A DNA stretch of 64,000 bases from Halobacteriovoraceae bacterium (GCA_963719505.1 CAVRCF010000001.1:448001-512000), one strand, 5' to 3'; shown: positions 19,663 to 29,685, numbered from the stretch's first letter. Notes: generated by a model from the letters alone, not told the origin. Translations and numbers: made by a program.

Positions 19663-20876
19663 AGTTACTTCTCATTTTTCTTTTTACAAGCCAAGCTTTT
19701 GCCAATCTAAATTTTGGTAAAGATTTCTCACTCACTAAATTTGATTTTGATAAATTCAAAATAGAATTCAATGAAAAGTTTTTTAACGGAATTTTTCCAG
19801 ATACAATCTCTTCGAATGATAAAGACTTTGATGTTACCTACAGCATAAATAAAAATTTAGAAAAGCAAGTTAAGAGATATTTGAGAAGGTATCGATCCGA
19901 CTACGCTTCAGTGGTCATCATTGATAATAACACTGGCGAAGTCCTAACAGCTATAGATTATACTAAAGAGACTAAAGAGTTTGGTACCGCTATAACTTTT
20001 TCAAGCACTAATCCGGCGGCAAGTATTTTTAAGGTCATTACAGCTGCTGATCTTTTAGAAAACAAAAAGGTTGATAGTGAAACCCCTTTTAGTTACTCAG
20101 GACGCTCTTCTACACTTTATAAATATCAATTAAAAAATAAAAAAAATAAATGGACCAGAACGATTCCTTTTAAGAAGGCTTTCGCAAGATCTAATAATGT
20201 TATTTTTGGTAAAGCGGCTCAAAAAAATACAACAGCATTAAGTATTCAGAACACTGCTAATAAGTTTGGCTTTAATAGTAATGACCTCTTTCAACTCTTA
20301 GATGTCGGCGAGTCACAAGTCTTTACGGCAACAACCAATTATGGTCTTGCTGAGTTAGCTTCGGGATTTAATAAAGCGACGATGATTTCACCAGTCCATG
20401 GAGCTGTTATTGCCTCTGTTATAGCCAATAAGGGATACCTTATTAATCCGAAGTTAGTGACGAGGGTTTATGACTCTAAAAATGAAAGAGAAATATGGAA
20501 GCCTGAACATGTCAAAAAGCAAGTCCTTACAAATGAGTCTGCTGATGAGTTAGATAAAATGATGAGGTTGACTGTTGAAGCTGGGACAGCTCGTGGAGCT
20601 TTTAGAGCGAGGAAGATGAGAAGAATTAGAAACATAGACGTTGCAGGAAAGACGGGAAGTATTACTGGTGGAGTTCCTTTTGGGAAGCGAGATTGGTTCG
20701 TGTCTTACGCAAAGCCCAATGATAAACCTGATGACAATGGAATTTCAGTTTGTGTTATGATTGTTAACGTAAAGAAGTGGTATATTAAATCGACATACCT
20801 TGCTAAAAAAATCATTCAATATTATTATGATGACTTACAAAGATTAGAATCCAAAACAAAAGTGGTAAAAAAATGA
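19659..20876 (+). CDS. Penicillin-binding protein, transpeptidase domain only, with signal peptide
   Basis: SxxK (ASIFK), SxN (SNN), KTG (GKTGS); N-terminal signal ending AFA. Confidence 0.85.
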   Translation: MKLLLIFLFTSQAFANLNFGKDFSLTKFDFDKFKIEFNEKFFNGIFPDTISSNDKDFDVTYSINKNLEKQVKRYLRRYRSDYASVVIIDNNTGEVLTAIDYTKETKEFGTAITFSSTNPAASIFKVITAADLLENKKVDSETPFSYSGRSSTLYKYQLKNKKNKWTRTIPFKKAFARSNNVIFGKAAQKNTTALSIQNTANKFGFNSNDLFQLLDVGESQVFTATTNYGLAELASGFNKATMISPVHGAVIASVIANKGYLINPKLVTRVYDSKNEREIWKPEHVKKQVLTNESADELDKMMRLTVEAGTARGAFRARKMRRIRNIDVAGKTGSITGGVPFGKRDWFVSYAKPNDKPDDNGISVCVMIVNVKKWYIKSTYLAKKIIQYYYDDLQRLESKTKVVKK

Positions 20877-21646
20877 GTGAAGTTTCAAGTGAGTCTCTAG
20901 AACAGGATGGGACGCAAAAGTTATCAAAAATGCAAAAATTTAAAAAAGAAGCCAAGTCGATAACTTTTATCATCATTGCTGTTCTTGCATTTAGATCTAC
21001 ATTTTTTGAACCCTTTAAAATTCCTTCAGGATCAATGATACCAACACTTTTAATCGGGGACTTTATTCTCGTTAATAAATTCTCCTATGGATTTAAGGTC
21101 CCTTTTTCCGATTGGTTCTCAGATCCCATTTATATAACAGGACCAGATCAGCCAGACAGAGGTGATGTCGTGGTTTTTAAGTATCCAAATGATACGTCAC
21201 TTAATTATATTAAAAGAGTCGTGGGTCTTCCCGGTGATACTGTTCAGATGATTAACCGAGTTATTTATATAAATGACCAACCAATTGAGGCAACACCAAT
21301 TGAGGCATCAGCCTTCATGGAAGATATGGATGAAAAATATAAAGTTTATAATTTAGAATTCTTCAAAACAAAAACTGGTGATGCTGAACACATAACGCAA
21401 ATTGATGCTGATAACTACTACTCAAGCGACTTTTCAAAGCTTGAGGTTCCAAAAGGTCATTACTTTGTGATGGGTGACAATAGAGATTTCTCTGCAGATT
21501 CTAGAAGTTGGGGATTTGTCCCCTTTGGACATATTAAGGGTAAAGCCGTTTTAATTTGGTTTTCAACCAATATTCCTTTTCCTGGCGCTGATGCCGGAGA
21601 TGTTTTCACTTTCAGACCATGGCGTATAGGTAACTTAATTAAGTAA
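20873..21646 (+). CDS. lepB: Signal peptidase I
   Basis: IPSGSMIPTL, RGDVVVF, YIKRVVGLPGD, GDNRDFSADSR. Confidence 0.96.
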   Translation: MSEVSSESLEQDGTQKLSKMQKFKKEAKSITFIIIAVLAFRSTFFEPFKIPSGSMIPTLLIGDFILVNKFSYGFKVPFSDWFSDPIYITGPDQPDRGDVVVFKYPNDTSLNYIKRVVGLPGDTVQMINRVIYINDQPIEATPIEASAFMEDMDEKYKVYNLEFFKTKTGDAEHITQIDADNYYSSDFSKLEVPKGHYFVMGDNRDFSADSRSWGFVPFGHIKGKAVLIWFSTNIPFPGADAGDVFTFRPWRIGNLIK

Positions 21647-24002
21647 GAACCACTCTTGTTTCACCGTCATTACCTGTGTCATTCGAATCGGCTTTTATCG
21701 ATTTGTTCTTTTTGATAAAGTCCCTAAGCCAGCCTTTGAGAGTTCCGTTACCATGACCATGAATAAAGCAGACAAATGGTACTGAGTCTGTCAGAAGGTC
21801 TGAGACTGCTGACTCCACGACGCTTTGAAACTCCTCAAGTCTCATGCCACGACAATCATACTCGAGCTTTGCATTACTATTTTGAGGGTACTTAACTTGA
21901 ACATTACTTTGACCTTTCACTTTATGAGCGATTCTTAAAGAATCCATAGGACACTTTATACTCATGAGTCCTTTTGATACTTGAACTTCTTTTTTTCTCT
22001 CATTGATAGATTTAACTAAAACGGTTTGGCCTAAGAAGACTGAAAAATAGCTTTTTCCTACCTCTATGTTTTGAGGTTTTTTCATATGACTATATTTATC
22101 ACTGATTGGTTTAACTTTTTTATTTATAGGCTTTAGTTCAAAAAGAAGAGATTTGATTTCGTCATCTTTTTTATCGAGTTGCCTCTTACTTTCAATTTTA
22201 CCTGACTTTGCCTTGTGAAAATGACTTTGAGCTTTATCTAGAACTCGTTTAATTTTCTCTTCTAGATTAGAAACTTTCTCTTCAAGTTTTAGCTGATAAA
22301 CTCCCTCCATAGATTTCTTTTTGTTCTTAATTTGAATATTCAAATCTTTATTTTCTCTTAAAAGTTTATCGAGTTCATTTTCTTTTGCACCAATTTTTTC
22401 CAAAAGCGATTCATAATTGAGCATTTTATTGTCTAGGATTCGCTTTGCCTTTTCTACAATTCTTAAACTCTGTGGGCTATCACCATTGAGTTTTGTAAAT
22501 ACTTTAAGCGCCTGGGAGCTTCCTGGAGCCCCGGTGTGTAGATTATAACTTGGCTTATTCGTTTCTGTATCAAAGCCAACATGAGCTGAAACAAAGTGGT
22601 TTTTGTCGTGCATAAGAGTTTTAAGCATTTGATGGTGTGTTGATACTAAAAAATGCGTTTCACTTACTCCACTGATCTCTTCAAATAAAGAAAGGGCAAG
22701 CGCTGAGGCTTCTTCCGAGGAGGTGGAATTAAAAATTTCATCAATTATAATAAGATTTGTCGGCGCCAGCTTAACTAAAAGTTCTGAATAGTTTTTTACC
22801 TCAGAGGCGAAAGAACTTAGCCCCTCTGGTAGGTTTTGACCGTCGTTACCAAAATAATGAATGCCCTCGTAGAGGTGGATGGTCGCATTGTCGGCGGGAA
22901 TAAAGAGTCCGAATTTTAAAAATATCTGAATAAGTGCAATAGACTTTAAAGTTGCTGTCTTGCCCCCAGTATTTGGCCCAGAAATTATCATTCCATTTGA
23001 AGTGGGGAGAATCTCGATATCATTTTTTACTGGATCTTTAATGAGTGGATGATACATGCCTTTGATAATAACTTCTCGATTTTTTGAAAGAGTAGCTTTT
23101 ATATAATCATTAGTATGAGCAAACTTCATCCTCGTTAAATACTCATCTACATATTGAATAGTTAAAGAGATTAAAGCCAAGTGGTCATGTACTTGTGTTA
23201 GAGCATTCGAAAACTTGAGCGTAAGGGAGTTTAATTCTTTATCAAGTTTTAAAACAAGCTCTAAGCGAGCAATATTCATATTTTTGATCTTTGAAGGTTC
23301 AATAAATAAGGTTTGACCTGAGTCCGAGCGTGAAACGATTTGTCCTAGGGTCGATTGATAGGAGTCACTTTTAACTGGAAGGACGTATCTGTCGTTTATT
23401 AAATCAAAACTATCAAATTGTAATTTGGAGCTCCACTGAGAATCAGACATTAACCCTTGTAAACTCTTTCGGATATTTTGTTCGAGATCAATTTTTTCTT
23501 TGTAGAGAACTTTTAAAAGAGGATGCTTAAAATAGTCAATTTCACCATCAGTGCTGACAAAGCTGCGAAACTCTTTTAGAAAGGTATTTAGGTACTTTCT
23601 TTTTATATTGTGGAAATCATGTTTTTCTTCCTTAGTAAAACCTAAGTCAAAAAGATCAAAATAGTTTTCCAAATACAATTCGATTCCAAGGGCTATCTCA
23701 TTGAGCTGAGTGAAGTCGAAGACAGCAGACTTTGAGGATTTACTCATACAATCAAAAATAGATCCCGATGGATCTAGAACAACTAAAGCGGAAGATATAT
23801 CCTTGATTGCAGTACTATGATACTTTTCTAATAAAAGCTGGGTCCTATCAAGAGTCTTTTGAATATCGTGGACAGTTTTAGGTATAAAAATCTTTGTTTT
23901 AACCGTATCATAAAAATGGGCGTGACCCTCGAGCTGATGACTAATTAGAGGCCACTCTAAAAGTTTTAGAATCTCAGGGTCCAAAAAAAATTGAGAACTC
24001 AT
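21639..24002 (-). CDS. mutS2: MutS2 (ribosome-collision ATPase with KOW and Smr domains)
   Basis: SGQTLFIEP, SGPNTGGKT, LSSFAS, IIDE, STHH, G.PGSS.A, C-terminal DCRG...IHGHGNG. Confidence 0.93.
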   Translation of the reverse strand: MSSQFFLDPEILKLLEWPLISHQLEGHAHFYDTVKTKIFIPKTVHDIQKTLDRTQLLLEKYHSTAIKDISSALVVLDPSGSIFDCMSKSSKSAVFDFTQLNEIALGIELYLENYFDLFDLGFTKEEKHDFHNIKRKYLNTFLKEFRSFVSTDGEIDYFKHPLLKVLYKEKIDLEQNIRKSLQGLMSDSQWSSKLQFDSFDLINDRYVLPVKSDSYQSTLGQIVSRSDSGQTLFIEPSKIKNMNIARLELVLKLDKELNSLTLKFSNALTQVHDHLALISLTIQYVDEYLTRMKFAHTNDYIKATLSKNREVIIKGMYHPLIKDPVKNDIEILPTSNGMIISGPNTGGKTATLKSIALIQIFLKFGLFIPADNATIHLYEGIHYFGNDGQNLPEGLSSFASEVKNYSELLVKLAPTNLIIIDEIFNSTSSEEASALALSLFEEISGVSETHFLVSTHHQMLKTLMHDKNHFVSAHVGFDTETNKPSYNLHTGAPGSSQALKVFTKLNGDSPQSLRIVEKAKRILDNKMLNYESLLEKIGAKENELDKLLRENKDLNIQIKNKKKSMEGVYQLKLEEKVSNLEEKIKRVLDKAQSHFHKAKSGKIESKRQLDKKDDEIKSLLFELKPINKKVKPISDKYSHMKKPQNIEVGKSYFSVFLGQTVLVKSINERKKEVQVSKGLMSIKCPMDSLRIAHKVKGQSNVQVKYPQNSNAKLEYDCRGMRLEEFQSVVESAVSDLLTDSVPFVCFIHGHGNGTLKGWLRDFIKKNKSIKADSNDTGNDGETRVVLT

Positions 24003-25320
24003 GATACAAACTTATAATGATATCGCACAAGAAATCCAGAACTTTCGCAAGAAGTTTGGTGAATATGCTCAAATTCAAAAGATATACAGCTCCTCTCAGT
24101 TTATAAGCCTTCAAATACGTCTTCCGGGTAAAAGCTTCTATCTCTACTTTGGTAGAGGGCATCAATTTGAGGGCTTTTGGTTGGGCGAGAAGCAAATTGA
24201 AAGTGCACTGAGAAAAAGAGACCAATTTTTGGAATATTTCAGGCGATATTTGTCAGCATCGGTTCTTCTTAATCTTCAATTAGACTCAAAAGATAGAATT
24301 ACAAAAATTGACTACGGGAGGTTTGGACACACAAATAGAATGTTTCTCTTTTATAAAGGACGAGAACTCTACTTTGCCAATATCTATTTCGATGAAAAGA
24401 TAAAGAGATTCAAAACTTTCTGCTCTTGGATAAAAGGGACTCTTGATTTTGAAGCTAATGATTTTGAAATCTTTGATGAGATTGGTCGAAAAGACATCGA
24501 TAAATCAGCACCACTTCGAGAACCAAAGAGTATCGATAAACTCCTAAAAGTCGAAAAAGAGAAAGCCATCCAATTATTATCCTCCGGAAAGTCTAAGAAG
24601 TTTCTTGTAAGGAAGAAGAAAAACATTACCAATGATATTGATCAAGTCAATCGTTGGCCTGAGTTAGCGGAATTTATTCAAAATAATGAAAGTTTTGAAA
24701 AATTGAAACGAAAAGAAAAAATTAAGGGCTTTAAGATAAATTTTAAAAATGCAGATCATTATAAAAGACAAGATGAGCTTTACACGAAGGTTAAGAAGCT
24801 GAAAAAAGCGCAAAAAATTCTTGCTTTAAGATTATCGGATACTGAAAAAAGTCTAGATAAACAGATGACTCAATTACATGACTTTGAGAATAAACTTAAA
24901 ATTATTAAGCCCATTTGGGCTCAGTCATTTAAAGCTGATACGGTTGAAGTAACTGCTGAAAATGGATATAAAGTGTTTGATCTTGATCGTTTTAAATTAG
25001 CTGTCGGAATTTCGGCGGCGGGGAATGATCAGATGAGGAAAAGTTGGGCGAGTAAAGAGGATATGTGGTTTCACGCCCATGGAGACAAGTCTCCCCATAT
25101 TATCATCAAAACTGATCAGCCTTTAGATATGGAGTTATTCCAGAAAGTAGCAAGTGCAATGATTCATTTTATGGGAACTAAAAAGTCTGATGTGAATCTA
25201 ATGTATTGTCCCGTTAAAAATATTAAAGGTGTGAAAGGCGTTCAAGGCTCGGTGACCTTTAAAAAGGAAAAGTATATAAATGTTATTATTGAAAACGATT
25301 GGACTACTCTTATCAATTAG
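24001..25320 (+). CDS. rqcH: NFACT family protein, RqcH/FbpA-like (ribosome quality control)
   Basis: NFACT-N with KDRI motif at about residue 98; NFACT-R GND...DMWFHA...SPHIII...KGV.G.V.F; shorter than Bacillus RqcH. Confidence 0.75.
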   Translation: MIQTYNDIAQEIQNFRKKFGEYAQIQKIYSSSQFISLQIRLPGKSFYLYFGRGHQFEGFWLGEKQIESALRKRDQFLEYFRRYLSASVLLNLQLDSKDRITKIDYGRFGHTNRMFLFYKGRELYFANIYFDEKIKRFKTFCSWIKGTLDFEANDFEIFDEIGRKDIDKSAPLREPKSIDKLLKVEKEKAIQLLSSGKSKKFLVRKKKNITNDIDQVNRWPELAEFIQNNESFEKLKRKEKIKGFKINFKNADHYKRQDELYTKVKKLKKAQKILALRLSDTEKSLDKQMTQLHDFENKLKIIKPIWAQSFKADTVEVTAENGYKVFDLDRFKLAVGISAAGNDQMRKSWASKEDMWFHAHGDKSPHIIIKTDQPLDMELFQKVASAMIHFMGTKKSDVNLMYCPVKNIKGVKGVQGSVTFKKEKYINVIIENDWTTLIN

Positions 25321-25993
25321 TGTTTTTGCAGCAGCAGAAAGAAGAGACTTCTGGCCTGAAAGCGCAAATATGAATGCCAATATTGGCAATTTTTCGGTGT
25401 CTATAAAGACCGACAGCTTTAAAGAAATTTTAAACTCAAATAAGAGTCTTTCATATAGGTATTTCTGGTCAAAAGATAAAGACTTCCTCGACTGTAGTGA
25501 GCCTTCAATCTGTCCTATCTTACTAAATAAAATTAAAATACTTACCGGTGATAATTTAAATAAATTTCTCGAGAAATATGTTTTTGTAGAAAAAGATAAT
25601 GGATGGCATAAATACAAAGATGGGAGTGGGGCTGAGGACTATTCTGATGTTTCAATTAAATATGAAAACGATATGCTTTATATTATACAAAAAAATCCAA
25701 CCGGAACCGAATATATCAATTACACTTTTAAAAAAGACGAGCATGGTCTAGCTCTCACTACAGTTGAGCATAAGTCTTATGTTGGTCTTCAAAAATTTAG
25801 GACAATTACCACCCTTGAATATGGTAAACTTAGGAAATTGAGATTTCCGACGAAAGTCATTATGGCGACAAACCAGTCTCTCATTACAAAAGATATCAAG
25901 ACCCCAAAACGGAAGGTGCGTGAAATCTACGACTTTACTGACTATAAAATTAATGACAAATCTAATCTCGAAAGGTTGAGTCGATCTAAGTAG
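25280..25993 (+). CDS. Exported hypothetical protein
   Basis: Signal peptide ending VFA; beta-rich composition; overlaps the rqcH 3' end. Confidence 0.6.
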   Translation: MLLLKTIGLLLSISVFAAAERRDFWPESANMNANIGNFSVSIKTDSFKEILNSNKSLSYRYFWSKDKDFLDCSEPSICPILLNKIKILTGDNLNKFLEKYVFVEKDNGWHKYKDGSGAEDYSDVSIKYENDMLYIIQKNPTGTEYINYTFKKDEHGLALTTVEHKSYVGLQKFRTITTLEYGKLRKLRFPTKVIMATNQSLITKDIKTPKRKVREIYDFTDYKINDKSNLERLSRSK

Positions 25994-26079: not shown

Positions 26080-29000
26080 ATGAAAATTATCGTCATGTTC
26101 TGGTTTGTACTAGTCCTATCTTGTGGGCAGCAACAAACTAAAATGAGCAGTAAACTTTTATCCGCCAGCGAACGAAAATCACTTTCGACAAAGTGCGAAG
26201 ACGCTAATTTTCACACAGATGTTTTAACGAAAAACGGCTTGATAAAGATATTTGAATGTCTCTCTTGGAAAGAAAAGTACCCCCAAGTTAGTCGCTGGTT
26301 GATCTCTATTGATGAAACTGATTTGAATAACTCTCTAGCTACTTTCAATCAAACATTTTTCAGGTCTACAGCGACAAGAAATAAATTTCTAGATTTCGCC
26401 AAAGAGTATATCTTAGAGGATGTCATTAAAGAGTGGCATACTTTAGCCAAGAACCTCTCTGAGGAATCCTTGCCGATTAATTTTTTAGATATTATATCTC
26501 AAAACAATCAAAACTTTCCTGAAATAAAACAACAGTCATTGCTGGTAGTAGGTGAATCTTTAGGTGGCATTTCTCAAAACCTTCAAGATAAGATCCAGAT
26601 AACTTTTCGTGAAATAAAAAACGATAAACCCCTTTACAGCAAATTGCCCCCTCTTCTTCAGGTGATACTGTCTGAATATGTCAAAGATCCAAAATCTTTT
26701 TTCAAGATGTTCAGTTCACTTGTTAGTCCAGACGAAGAACTCATCTTGGGTTTACAGACTATGGAGGGCCATAATTTTCAAAACCTACTTTACTACCCAA
26801 GAAGTAGAGAGAACGTCCAGCAGACCGCTGCTAGGTTGCAGCAGATTATTGTTAATAATGAGTACGCCTGTAGCGACACGACTGGTATCTATGAGCTGAA
26901 TCAAGTTAAAGAGCTAACAAGTAGAATGAAAGATCTTCGAGCTCTTAGTCACGAAGATTTTCTTTTTAGTCTCTATGATTTGCGGCTTAAATTTACTCTT
27001 TTTAACAATATTTGTTACTATAAAGAACTTGATGATCTCGTCAAAGTATTTATGGATGATCTGATTGAATTCTCCATTGATCCTGTCGGTTTTAATACCC
27101 TCAAGAGGGTTGCCCTTGGATCTGATGACGACTTCTCTCTTTTTAACTATATTAGTTCTGACTTTTTTAGCACCTATAAAAAGCTTGTTGAGCATGACAC
27201 AGAAGAAACGCTGATGAATTTACTCCCAGCGCTCCAAGCAATATCTATAAATGATTTGAAGCTTTTTTCAAATATACTTGGAGAACTGTCTTTAGACCTC
27301 TCTTTTGCAGCTCAATTTAAGTTGTATTGGAGTGAGTTTTCGACAAAAGAAAAAAACACAATTTTACATTTTGTTCGAGATAGTATTTTTTCTAAAGGGA
27401 AAATAACATCCTCTCTTATGGCCGGTGCAAAGCTTTTGAATTTATATCCTAACCTTATAAAGGACATTTATAAAAACACTGAAAAAGCTGGTGTCATAAG
27501 GCTTTTGAAAAAGTTCTCAGAAGCCTCTCAAAAAGAGGGTTTTAGGAATGATCTCTCTCATTTTGTGAGCGATGAAAACTTTGGACAATTGTTGCGAATC
27601 CTTGGACAAACAAAAGATGAGAAGCGCCCCGAGACAGACAGTGATGTTTCTGTGGCAAGAGTGCAGCAAGACAAGGGGAGCGCAATAAAGAGTTGCTTGA
27701 ATGATCTCTTTGAGAAGGTTAAGGGGGAATATAACTTTTGGACCTTGTTGGAAAAATACCCTGAAACTTGCCAAAGGCTTCCGGAACAAAAAAAAGAGAT
27801 GGCACATTTAGTCTTTGAATGGACCTTTGATATTGATCGGATCTTTCTTAAGTTTACCGGACAGAAGTTTGCTGTCGACTACGGAGTTATTTCTCCGCAA
27901 ATGATGCGCTACTATCATGAGCTCATTCACCTAACAAACAGACATTTACAAAAGAATAACCCTAACTATGTTTTAGAGACTATCGATCGGGTGAGAAAGC
28001 ATCTTTTTGACTTCAATTTGATAGGTGTTCTAGACTCATTTGTAACAGTGGCAAATAATACGATTGTTGGCTCAAGAAAAGAGACTGACCAAGCTTTAAA
28101 GCTACTCGTTGAAGCAGACTTCTCACAAGTAGATTCTTCAATTAAAAACCTTCTTTTGAGCTTAAACACCAAAGAACAAAAACCATCTAGTTATACTTAC
28201 ACTAAAAAATTAAATACTAGGGTTGGAGAAAAGAACACTTCATCGACAAAAGAAATCCTCAGTTTTGCAAAGGATACAAAAAAGCTTTTGTTAAAAGAGA
28301 ATGATGGACAAAACCTTTTGAGCAGTGTGATTGATCTTCTTCATCCCAAAAGTGGAGTTCCAATTCCCATGTTTCGGGATCAACAAAGAATAAAGAAATT
28401 TAACTTACAAGAATTTTTACTATTCCTCTATGATGCTTCATCTGGCGAAACAGCGGAGGAAGTTCTTTACCGAGATGAAAAAGGAAGTCAAGTTGTATCA
28501 CTTACTCTTATTCAAAGACTTGAACTAGTCATTAGAGAGATTGGATTTTTGAATAATTTCTACGGAGCCTTTTTCATAAATAAAATTGCAAAAGCAAAAA
28601 ACTATACAAGGCAAATTATAAAAATGAAGAAGACTCTAAGGGTTATAGATAAGTCGAGCGGTCTTTTTAGAAAACTAGGTATATTTCCTAAGGAAACTCA
28701 ATGGGCTTTTAAGAATATTGATCAAGCCTATGATTCACTTTGGCAACTCAACGATGGAAAGATGAGGTACGGAGATCTTATTCAATCTATATTGGCCACT
28801 ACCGTAACGAGTTCACCAGTGAACGCTCAATCATTTTCAGCACTAAGAAGACCCGACACCAATAGGGTTGAAGACCATAATGGTAAGTTCATTCGGTTGT
28901 TAACAAAAAATTCTATTCTTACTCATTTAAGTTTTTTCTTAAGAGAGAACTTCTCAAGAGATGAAATTGAGAACTCAGAATCTATAAGTATGGTTTCTGA

Positions 29001-29685
29001 AAACTTTCTAAAATTTATTTCTCAAGACGATCTTCTTTTACTGATGAGAAAAGTCTTGGAACATGAAAACTTTGAGGCAATCTTGGAAGACCTTGTGACT
29101 GAAAAAGATTTCTCTCTGGATGGTCTTTCCCACATCTTTAAGCTACTGGCCGATATGTCTTTAACTTTTAAGAATGAAGAATTGGGGAATTTAACTGGAG
29201 CTGTGATGGCTTTGATGGATCATTATTTTATTGTGATGAATATTGATAAAAAGGATAGTTTACGAGGGCTCGTGTCCCAATTTGCATCCATGGAAAGTGA
29301 AAAAAGGGTATCAGCATTAAAGGTATTAAAGTATTTCCCAAGAAAGGTTTCTGTTGACCGCCTTCAAATAGAGCAACTTGTCGCCAAGATAAATTTCTAT
29401 ACAAAAATGGGTGACAATAATAGTGGGTTTTTTAGAGAGTTCACTGGCGATAAGGACTTTAGTGTTACCCCAATTTTAAAGATGTTGCGCAGCACTCATC
29501 TGGAACAAGGAAATTTTAATTATTTTTATCATTTATTCGAGGTTTTGGGTGAGCGCGATGCTGAGGGCAGCATGCTCAAGCATGGTCTAGATAAACTCTT
29601 CAATGAAAAGTCCAACCAATTAGAGTCTTTTTTGTCTGACATTTTTACTCGGTTTGAGGACCAAAGCAGTTCTAAAAAGTTGTGA
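26080..29685 (+). CDS. Large (1201 aa) predicted lipoprotein of unknown function
   Basis: Lipobox VLSC at residue 15; helical Leu/Phe-rich composition; no recognised catalytic motif. Confidence 0.7.
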   Translation: MKIIVMFWFVLVLSCGQQQTKMSSKLLSASERKSLSTKCEDANFHTDVLTKNGLIKIFECLSWKEKYPQVSRWLISIDETDLNNSLATFNQTFFRSTATRNKFLDFAKEYILEDVIKEWHTLAKNLSEESLPINFLDIISQNNQNFPEIKQQSLLVVGESLGGISQNLQDKIQITFREIKNDKPLYSKLPPLLQVILSEYVKDPKSFFKMFSSLVSPDEELILGLQTMEGHNFQNLLYYPRSRENVQQTAARLQQIIVNNEYACSDTTGIYELNQVKELTSRMKDLRALSHEDFLFSLYDLRLKFTLFNNICYYKELDDLVKVFMDDLIEFSIDPVGFNTLKRVALGSDDDFSLFNYISSDFFSTYKKLVEHDTEETLMNLLPALQAISINDLKLFSNILGELSLDLSFAAQFKLYWSEFSTKEKNTILHFVRDSIFSKGKITSSLMAGAKLLNLYPNLIKDIYKNTEKAGVIRLLKKFSEASQKEGFRNDLSHFVSDENFGQLLRILGQTKDEKRPETDSDVSVARVQQDKGSAIKSCLNDLFEKVKGEYNFWTLLEKYPETCQRLPEQKKEMAHLVFEWTFDIDRIFLKFTGQKFAVDYGVISPQMMRYYHELIHLTNRHLQKNNPNYVLETIDRVRKHLFDFNLIGVLDSFVTVANNTIVGSRKETDQALKLLVEADFSQVDSSIKNLLLSLNTKEQKPSSYTYTKKLNTRVGEKNTSSTKEILSFAKDTKKLLLKENDGQNLLSSVIDLLHPKSGVPIPMFRDQQRIKKFNLQEFLLFLYDASSGETAEEVLYRDEKGSQVVSLTLIQRLELVIREIGFLNNFYGAFFINKIAKAKNYTRQIIKMKKTLRVIDKSSGLFRKLGIFPKETQWAFKNIDQAYDSLWQLNDGKMRYGDLIQSILATTVTSSPVNAQSFSALRRPDTNRVEDHNGKFIRLLTKNSILTHLSFFLRENFSRDEIENSESISMVSENFLKFISQDDLLLLMRKVLEHENFEAILEDLVTEKDFSLDGLSHIFKLLADMSLTFKNEELGNLTGAVMALMDHYFIVMNIDKKDSLRGLVSQFASMESEKRVSALKVLKYFPRKVSVDRLQIEQLVAKINFYTKMGDNNSGFFREFTGDKDFSVTPILKMLRSTHLEQGNFNYFYHLFEVLGERDAEGSMLKHGLDKLFNEKSNQLESFLSDIFTRFEDQSSSKKL

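Follow-up and report, generated by a model that had tools for sequence, protein, structure and literature searches.

In Bacillus subtilis, ribosome-associated quality control (RQC) begins with MutS2 (RqcU), which splits collided ribosomes, and RqcH and RqcP then add alanine tails on the 50S subunit. Tailing needs the D97 R98 motif in the NFACT-N domain of RqcH. The genes mutS2 and rqcH are not known to be linked in B. subtilis. Leaderless mRNAs with a -10 box at a fixed distance before the ATG are found in Actinobacteria, Deinococcus and archaea. In 2021, Warman et al. are said to have described symmetric bidirectional promoters of bacteria, in which the -10 elements overlap and the transcription starts lie about 18 bp apart. 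Here, we describe a locus that can be compared with all three of these systems. It is located in a stretch of 64,000 nt from a Halobacteriovoraceae bacterium (GCA_963719505.1 CAVRCF010000001.1:448001-512000; this whole stretch is termed the window, and its coordinates are used below). A mutS2 gene on the minus strand and a gene for a short RqcH-type protein of the NFACT family on the plus strand are joined here head-to-head at their start codons, unlike the genes of B. subtilis. We propose, with a probability of roughly 55%, that they form a fixed head-to-head RQC pair in which mutS2 would be transcribed as a leaderless mRNA from a -10 box within NFACT codons, while NFACT would be driven from early mutS2 codons.

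A preliminary description of this DNA had claimed that both start codons share one CATG, with no intergenic DNA and no strong Shine-Dalgarno (SD) sequence on either side, and the sequence bears this out. The ATG of NFACT occupies 24001-24003 on the plus strand and the ATG of mutS2 occupies 24002-24000 on the minus strand, so that the two open reading frames (ORFs) overlap. An SD-like 4-mer of the GGAG, GAGG or AGGA type was found upstream of neither ATG, and GAGA alone precedes that of NFACT. Since stop codons lie in frame just 5' of both ATGs (TGA three codons before NFACT, TAA four codons before mutS2), neither ORF can extend further. The first ATG of NFACT is its sole ATG, GTG or TTG ahead of codon 61. 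The mutS2 frame offers a single alternative start, a TTG at codon 7 (23984-23982), which is missing from most relatives. Both N-terminal peptides are kept across relatives, as M-I-Q-x-Y in NFACT and M-x-L-N-L-L in MutS2; in the window NFACT reads MIQTY and MutS2 starts with Met-Ser-Ser. The match to the equivalog profile TIGR01069 begins at MutS2 residue 10, and the NFACT model aligns to PavA and RqcH from residue 2. The check for true starts elsewhere that would leave a normal intergenic region came out in favor of the CATG starts, with frames closed upstream and conserved N-termini. In the same genome six raw pairs of divergent ORFs share a CATG, and only the mutS2/NFACT pair is credible. 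None of the other five combines first-candidate starts on both sides with leaderless features, and one of them has a clear SD sequence inside the partner ORF. We hold it to be very probable that the head-to-head arrangement and the identities of both genes are real.

The arrangement is not unique to this genome. It was followed in two sets of loci, which overlap in genomes. The first set was drawn from 41 related genomes, 24 of which have an NFACT homolog (including 22 of the 24 same-family genomes), and returned 26 loci. For the second set one genome per species was searched with a 7-sequence subset, and the 46 loci obtained span Bacteriovoracaceae, Halobacteriovoraceae, Bacteriovorax and Halobacteriovorax marinus. 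Both N-termini are present in 19 loci of the first set. Each of these 19 has mutS2 immediately upstream of NFACT on the opposite strand, and in 16 the two ATGs share the exact CATG; the exceptions are L009, where the genes are about 133 nt apart, L015, where the distance is 9 nt, and L020, where a TTG start is used and the genes overlap. In the second set both N-termini are present in 40 loci and the genes are divergent neighbors in every one of them. The CATG is shared in 33 of these (32 found by script, in addition to L036), while six (L041-L045 and L050) have CATATG, in which two start codons abut, and L060 differs. NFACT identity to the window protein goes down to 24-35% in these loci while the junction stays. 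Judged from these alignments, the CATG junction is far better conserved than the proteins, and more than chance would lead one to expect.

Linkage of the two genes was surveyed further across the phylum Bdellovibrionota, where 201 genomes were searched with the NFACT profile and TIGR01069 and the coordinates were compared by hand. In the family to which the window belongs, 31 genomes carry both genes, which are adjacent and divergent in 30 and lie on different contigs in G160. Four genomes of this family have NFACT without a MutS2-level match (G012, G152, G050 and G192) and one has neither gene (G168). A second form is seen in family f4, where each of the 18 genomes that gave an NFACT match (L078 from G027 and L080 from G090 among them) carries the genes in tandem: mutS2 comes second, 33-90 nt behind NFACT and on the same strand. 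In families f21, f23 and f24 the genes diverge and are separated by about 17-45 nt (L074-L077), and in one f21 genome (L079) two ORFs are inserted between mutS2 and NFACT. Distances between the genes range from 25 kb to over 200 kb in families f9 (with genomes of about 3.8 Mb on a single contig), f13, f14, f15 and f26. Linkage of mutS2 and rqcH thus recurs in this phylum without being universal, in two forms or more. The earlier suggestion that the steps of RQC are physically coupled agrees with this survey, in that the family keeps the linkage and the phylum shows it again in other configurations. Co-occurrence has been reported before; the accessible part of PMC11633108 gives mutS2 in 97% of genomes with rqcH, and both genes in 5 of 6 genomes of Bdellovibrionota.

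The minus-strand gene had been named mutS2, and we arrive at the same assignment. The protein scores 399.9 bits against TIGR01069, just short of the cut-off of 400, over residues 10-784 of 787, and relatives from the same family score 353-456 bits. It has the MutS_V domain with a Walker A motif and a Smr domain, which carries HGHG at residue 748. By its domain and motif matches, with this borderline profile score, the gene is a mutS2 with a predicted MutS domain V ATPase and a C-terminal Smr domain.

For the plus-strand gene, named rqcH before, the assignment to the RqcH/NFACT relatives stands by profile and by fold, but the protein is a short form that lacks the helix-hairpin-helix (HhH) domain. 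Pfam NFACT_N is not detected in the window protein, and NFACT-R_1 (PF05670) gives 24.6 bits, under its cut-off of 29.8. When 18 members of the family were scanned one by one, NFACT-R_1 was found in 18 of 18 and NFACT_N in six (E≤1). Searching the own genome with Pfam NFACT_N turned up no second, canonical RqcH, only a weak unrelated match on contig C5 with 20.2 bits. A family profile made from the alignment of these 18 members (A1) matches chains of B. subtilis RqcH (7aqc_R and others) with E=1e-17, and its positions 148-435 align to RqcH 265-562. The N-terminal stretch 33-110 of the profile is in register with RqcH 33-109; this match is weak (9.8 bits), and in it D-R aligns with LDRI. Retention of the DR motif within KDRI, as had been noted earlier, is thereby borne out for D98 R99, on this weak stretch. 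Within the family alignment the motif reads DR in 13 of 18 members and DK in two, and it is absent from three. An AlphaFold model built on A1 reaches a mean pLDDT of 88.5, with about 89 for the N-terminal helix. Its best Foldseek match is 50S-bound RqcH 8s1u_H (1.9e-15), followed by 7aqc_R, 7as8_0 and 7ope_0, and human NEMF and yeast Rqc2 are also among the top matches. By VIA-align, the modeled NFACT-N domain superimposes on the N-domain of PavA (6pon_A; Z 13.1, rmsd 3.2, 150 residues, model residues 2-166, where the alignment ends) and NFACT-R on CCDC25 (7eoe_A; Z 14.0, rmsd 2.1, 117 residues, model residues 322-439), while Rqc2 (3j92_u) gives Z 11.2 against the model. In both the profile alignment and the model, the HhH domain that would separate NFACT-N from the coiled coil is missing. 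About 150 residues of RqcH, the end of NFACT-N together with HhH, correspond here to about 40, with a single short helix at 155-161. The plus-strand protein is thus, as predicted from profile and model, a relative of RqcH/NFACT with NFACT-N, coiled coil and NFACT-R and without HhH.

The locus is like the B. subtilis system in the two protein families that it encodes, in the ATPase and Smr domains of MutS2, in NFACT-N with DR, coiled coil and NFACT-R, and in having 50S-bound RqcH as the top structural match. It is unlike it in the length of the NFACT protein, which is 439 aa here compared to 570 aa for RqcH, and in the loss of HhH. Most open frames of NFACT in the phylum have about 400-610 codons, and many are near 430-500 (families f9, f13, f23 and others). 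Since these frames are short across Bdellovibrionota, the short and possibly HhH-less form may be phylum-wide.

Because there is no intergenic DNA, the promoter of each gene must lie within its partner, as the preliminary description had stated. To place them we draw on a survey of the own genome (G000), in which the first ATG of 2298 ORFs of at least 200 aa was taken as the start. In these ORFs the peak of SD-like 4-mers lies 5-7 nt upstream of the ATG. The hexamer TAnnnT stands exactly 6 nt before the ATG (N6) in 161 ORFs, compared to 40-89 at each other offset from 0 to 34. An SD-like motif is present in 9% of these 161 genes versus 45% of all ORFs, a T at -35 in 105 and a G at -14 in 73. 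The N6 peak is also seen in a second genus (37 versus 7-31 among 533 ORFs in 800 kb; G006:C1:100001-900000). The combination of TAnnnT-N6-ATG, few SD motifs and TTG at -35 thus appears in two genera of Bacteriovoracaceae, and roughly 100 genes bear it. Taken on these sequence patterns, TAnnnT-N6-ATG is the predicted signature of sigma-70 promoters that start at the A of the ATG, and it defines a putative class of leaderless genes in this genome. With its sharp peak, the depletion of SD motifs, the TTG at -35 and the occurrence in two genera, this class resembles the described leaderless systems.

The mutS2 gene is one of the 161 members of this class. Its minus strand reads TAAGTT-TGTATC-ATG, with no SD-like 4-mer; in reverse complement, TAAGTT covers the third position of NFACT codon 3 (Gln), the whole of codon 4 and positions one and two of codon 5 (Tyr). 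In this the locus differs from the described leaderless systems, since the candidate -10 box falls within NFACT, a divergent neighbor with its start codon in the shared CATG, and since NFACT itself does not follow the N6 rule. We think that the mutS2 mRNA is probably leaderless. The preliminary description had considered leaderless mRNAs for both genes; mutS2 has the signature that this genome uses, but NFACT lacks it, and no promoter was identified for NFACT. Among 40 junctions that share the CATG (dereplicated at 80% identity from 48), mutS2 is preceded by TAnnnT at N6 in 20 cases and at N8 in six others, and NFACT at N7 in 24; the counts at other offsets are 0-9. In the CATATG clade the two additional nucleotides are inserted at the center of the palindrome, and both hexamer-to-CA distances are unchanged.

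We therefore favor the following scheme for the fixed pair. MutS2 would act as collision sensor and ribosome splitter, and the short RqcH-type NFACT protein would act on its product, the 50S subunit with peptidyl-tRNA. Each promoter would be written in the first codons of the partner gene. The mutS2 mRNA would start at the A of the ATG from TAAGTT, which also serves as NFACT codons 3-5, and NFACT would be transcribed from elements within mutS2 codons 2-12. In most relatives the TAnnnT 7 nt before the NFACT ATG would give a leaderless mRNA or one with a 1-nt leader; in this genome no such element was identified. Two RNA polymerases would then occupy the same DNA in opposite orientation, the expression of both factors would be tied to one site, and indels in the junction would be selected against, which would keep the CATG frozen. 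A stronger version of this scheme takes the CATG as the center of a two-way and mutually exclusive initiation site, with both mRNAs leaderless or nearly so and both -10 boxes in the first five codons of the partner. We regard this version as tentative and on the whole unlikely. If it were true, one stretch of DNA of the size of a polymerase would choose between splitter and tailing factor at each initiation and lock their ratio, and the mutually exclusive initiation would explain why the junction is frozen across a bacterial family.

Several observations weigh against the proposed fixed pair and its promoters. In the window there is no TAnnnT before NFACT at N6, N7 or N8 (AATTGA stands at N6 and AAATTG at N7), and the N7 spacing of the relatives is not enriched genome-wide, with 55 of 2298 ORFs in the own genome and 10 of 533 in the second genus. 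The mutS2 hexamer has no recognizable -35 element or TG, and the N6 hexamer is missing from 20 of the 40 junctions, including that of the Halobacteriovorax-like G006. The hexamers coincide with conserved codons (Tyr5 and Gln3 in NFACT, Asn4-Leu/Ile5 in MutS2) and may therefore reflect protein constraint alone. Synonymous sites give a weak test: MutS2 codon 5, where it encodes Ile, is ATA in 13 of 14 cases (genome 21%), but all of these belong to one clade, and where it encodes Leu, xTA is used in 11 of 20 (genome 35%), no different from codon 6. Gln3 of NFACT is CAA in 28 of 30 (genome 71%). The strongest promoter-like match at the junction starts inside the NFACT ORF, and its role is unexplained. 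Two genera, moreover, have lost mutS2 and keep NFACT: their genomes, both 99% complete (G012 and G023), have only a MutS1-like gene of about 170 bits. In these two genera NFACT is located directly behind lepB (L018 from G012, 770-1503, and L014 from G023); in L018 the stop codon of lepB runs into the start codon of NFACT, giving TAATG, and the N-termini read MIQNM in L018 and MILNY in L014, which are two cases only. Finally, a PF01479 query of the own genome, which is 83.5% complete, found no S4 protein like RqcP, Hsp15 or YlmH, again unlike B. subtilis; the matches were only rpsD, TlyA and a RluB-like synthase.

Some of these points would be accommodated if both mRNAs had leaders. Their promoters would then lie deeper in the partner gene, the 5' untranslated regions would be mutually antisense in an excludon-like manner, initiation would proceed without SD, and the hexamers would be by-products of the N-terminal codons. 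The missing -35 of the mutS2 hexamer, the lack of an N6-N8 hexamer before NFACT in the window, and the conserved codons with their weak synonymous-site signal are in line with this explanation. Initiation without SD is also common here, since by a crude measure 55% of the ORFs in the genome lack an SD-like 4-mer. However, no promoter-like match is present on the plus strand in 21400-23990, and the nearest ones on the minus strand are about 900 nt inside NFACT, with 9 of 12 positions. Antisense leaders would also leave unexplained the exact register of the ATGs, as CATG or CATATG, in 39 of 40 loci whose proteins are about 30% identical, and the fact that the mutS2 hexamer keeps precisely the distance typical of leaderless-type genes throughout the genome. 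We consider this explanation possible, at perhaps one chance in a few.

The sigma-70-like match TTGAGA-16-TATAAT leads to another explanation, in which it is active in this genus and forms, together with the minus-strand box, a back-to-back bidirectional core in NFACT codons 4-6. Leftward transcription would give a mutS2 mRNA with a leader of 5 nt at most or with none; the rightward RNA would lack the NFACT start and would be regulatory or non-productive, or it would imply an unrecognized start of NFACT. The match has 11 of 12 positions, of which the genome holds only 62 on both strands (7.39 million strand-bases). Within 21400-25500 no other sigma-70-like match lies near the junction; this one is retained in the nearest relative (L002/L028) and has 2 nt of its -10 in common with TAAGTT on the minus strand. 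In having AT-rich -10-like hexamers of both strands in one stretch, with this overlap of the plus TATAAT, the junction is like the promoters attributed to Warman et al. It is unlike them in that the geometry for the coding starts is inverted, with predicted starts 1 nt apart that face through each other's promoter instead of lying back-to-back around an upstream region that both use. The match is not kept in the rest of the family, however, and TATAAT simply spells Tyr5-Asn6 while TTGAG recurs as mutS2 codons. Moreover, the NFACT frame is open from the CATG, has its sole start codon there and is conserved in all loci, and the N-terminal helix of the model aligns to RqcH and PavA from residue 2. 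An active core of this kind is improbable in our view. That the overlap arose by chance or from misannotation, with true starts downstream and a normal intergenic region, is the least probable explanation by far: the in-frame TTG of mutS2 would put 18 nt between the genes, but most relatives lack it and have no candidate besides the ATG, NFACT has no other start until codon 61, the exact CATG and both N-terminal peptides are conserved, and two promoters would not fit even in 18 nt.

Table 1. Positions of the two genes, their domains and the candidate promoter elements in the window
Feature	Position	Strand	Basis or remark
Shared palindrome CATG	24000-24003	both	carries both start codons; ORFs overlap by 2 nt (AT)
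mutS2, 787 aa, predicted ribosome-splitting MutS paralog	21639-24002	minus	TIGR01069, Pfam domains
MutS_V ATPase (PF00488), residues 338-523	22434-22991	minus	E=2.6e-25
Walker A GPNTGGKT, residues 342-349	22956-22979	minus	motif
Smr domain (PF01713), residues 716-786	21645-21857	minus	E=1e-8
Short RqcH/NFACT gene, 439 aa	24001-25320	plus	profile, fold and Pfam evidence
NFACT-N, residues ~2-145	24004-24435	plus	AlphaFold model and structure alignment
DR motif codons D98 R99	24292-24297	plus	within KDRI, residues 97-100
Coiled coil, residues 178-293	24532-24879	plus	helices 178-228 and 253-293, small beta insert 238-247
NFACT-R, residues 322-439	24964-25317	plus	fold match, Pfam
TAAGTT, candidate -10 box of a leaderless mutS2 mRNA	24009-24014	minus	6 nt before the mutS2 ATG
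Sigma-70-like TTGAGA-16-TATAAT	23991-24018	plus	11/12; straddles CATG; predicted start ~24025, 24 nt inside NFACT
lepB, signal peptidase I, conserved left neighbor	20873-21646	plus	

The plus-strand gene lepB and the minus-strand gene mutS2 run toward each other and share 8 nt at their stop regions (21639-21646). A hairpin that resembles a terminator for the plus strand is located at 21684-21705, within the 3' end of mutS2. On the other side, an ORF of 237 aa (25280-25993) encodes a signal peptide, has no Pfam match and overlaps the 3' end of NFACT by 41 nt as called. It was considered as a missing RQC partner and rejected, given the signal peptide, the lack of a Pfam match and its conservation in only 15 of 61 loci. 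It is followed by an ORF of 1201 aa (26080-29685) that has no Pfam match and is kept in part of the family. Elsewhere in the genome, the gene of ribosomal protein S4 (L081, G000:C4:179020-182160, about 1290-1940 on the minus strand) looks split between frames: a 49-aa ORF encodes the N-terminus, and the S4 domain follows in a 68-aa open frame. Either a frameshift or an error of assembly may be responsible.

The proteins, the pathway and the co-occurrence of the two genes are already known, while the frozen CATG junction, the alternative forms of linkage within one phylum and an RqcH without HhH appear to be undescribed. In the literature on MutS2, RqcH and NFACT, on leaderless mRNAs and on overlapping genes, as far as its text was accessible, we found no statement on adjacency of mutS2 and rqcH or on a shared start codon, and the accessible parts of PMC11633108, PMC10897456, 10.1101/2023.05.03.539038, PMC11317155 and PMC3848588 contain none. 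A literature search found no paper on leaderless mRNAs in Bdellovibrio.

The gene context described here is evidence that MutS2 and RqcH act together, and it is independent of co-occurrence counts and of the genetics of B. subtilis. Within this one phylum the link between mutS2 and rqcH has arisen two or more times, in one case as a tandem operon and in another as a divergent pair. A natural short RqcH without HhH, and possibly without RqcP, raises the question of how the tRNA is held during tailing. A pair that shares its CATG at about 30% protein identity is a compact test case for leaderless initiation, for promoters in coding sequence and for competition between opposed polymerases. Isolates of Halobacteriovorax and Bacteriovorax can be cultured, and the same junction is present in both; the question is therefore directly testable in these bacteria.

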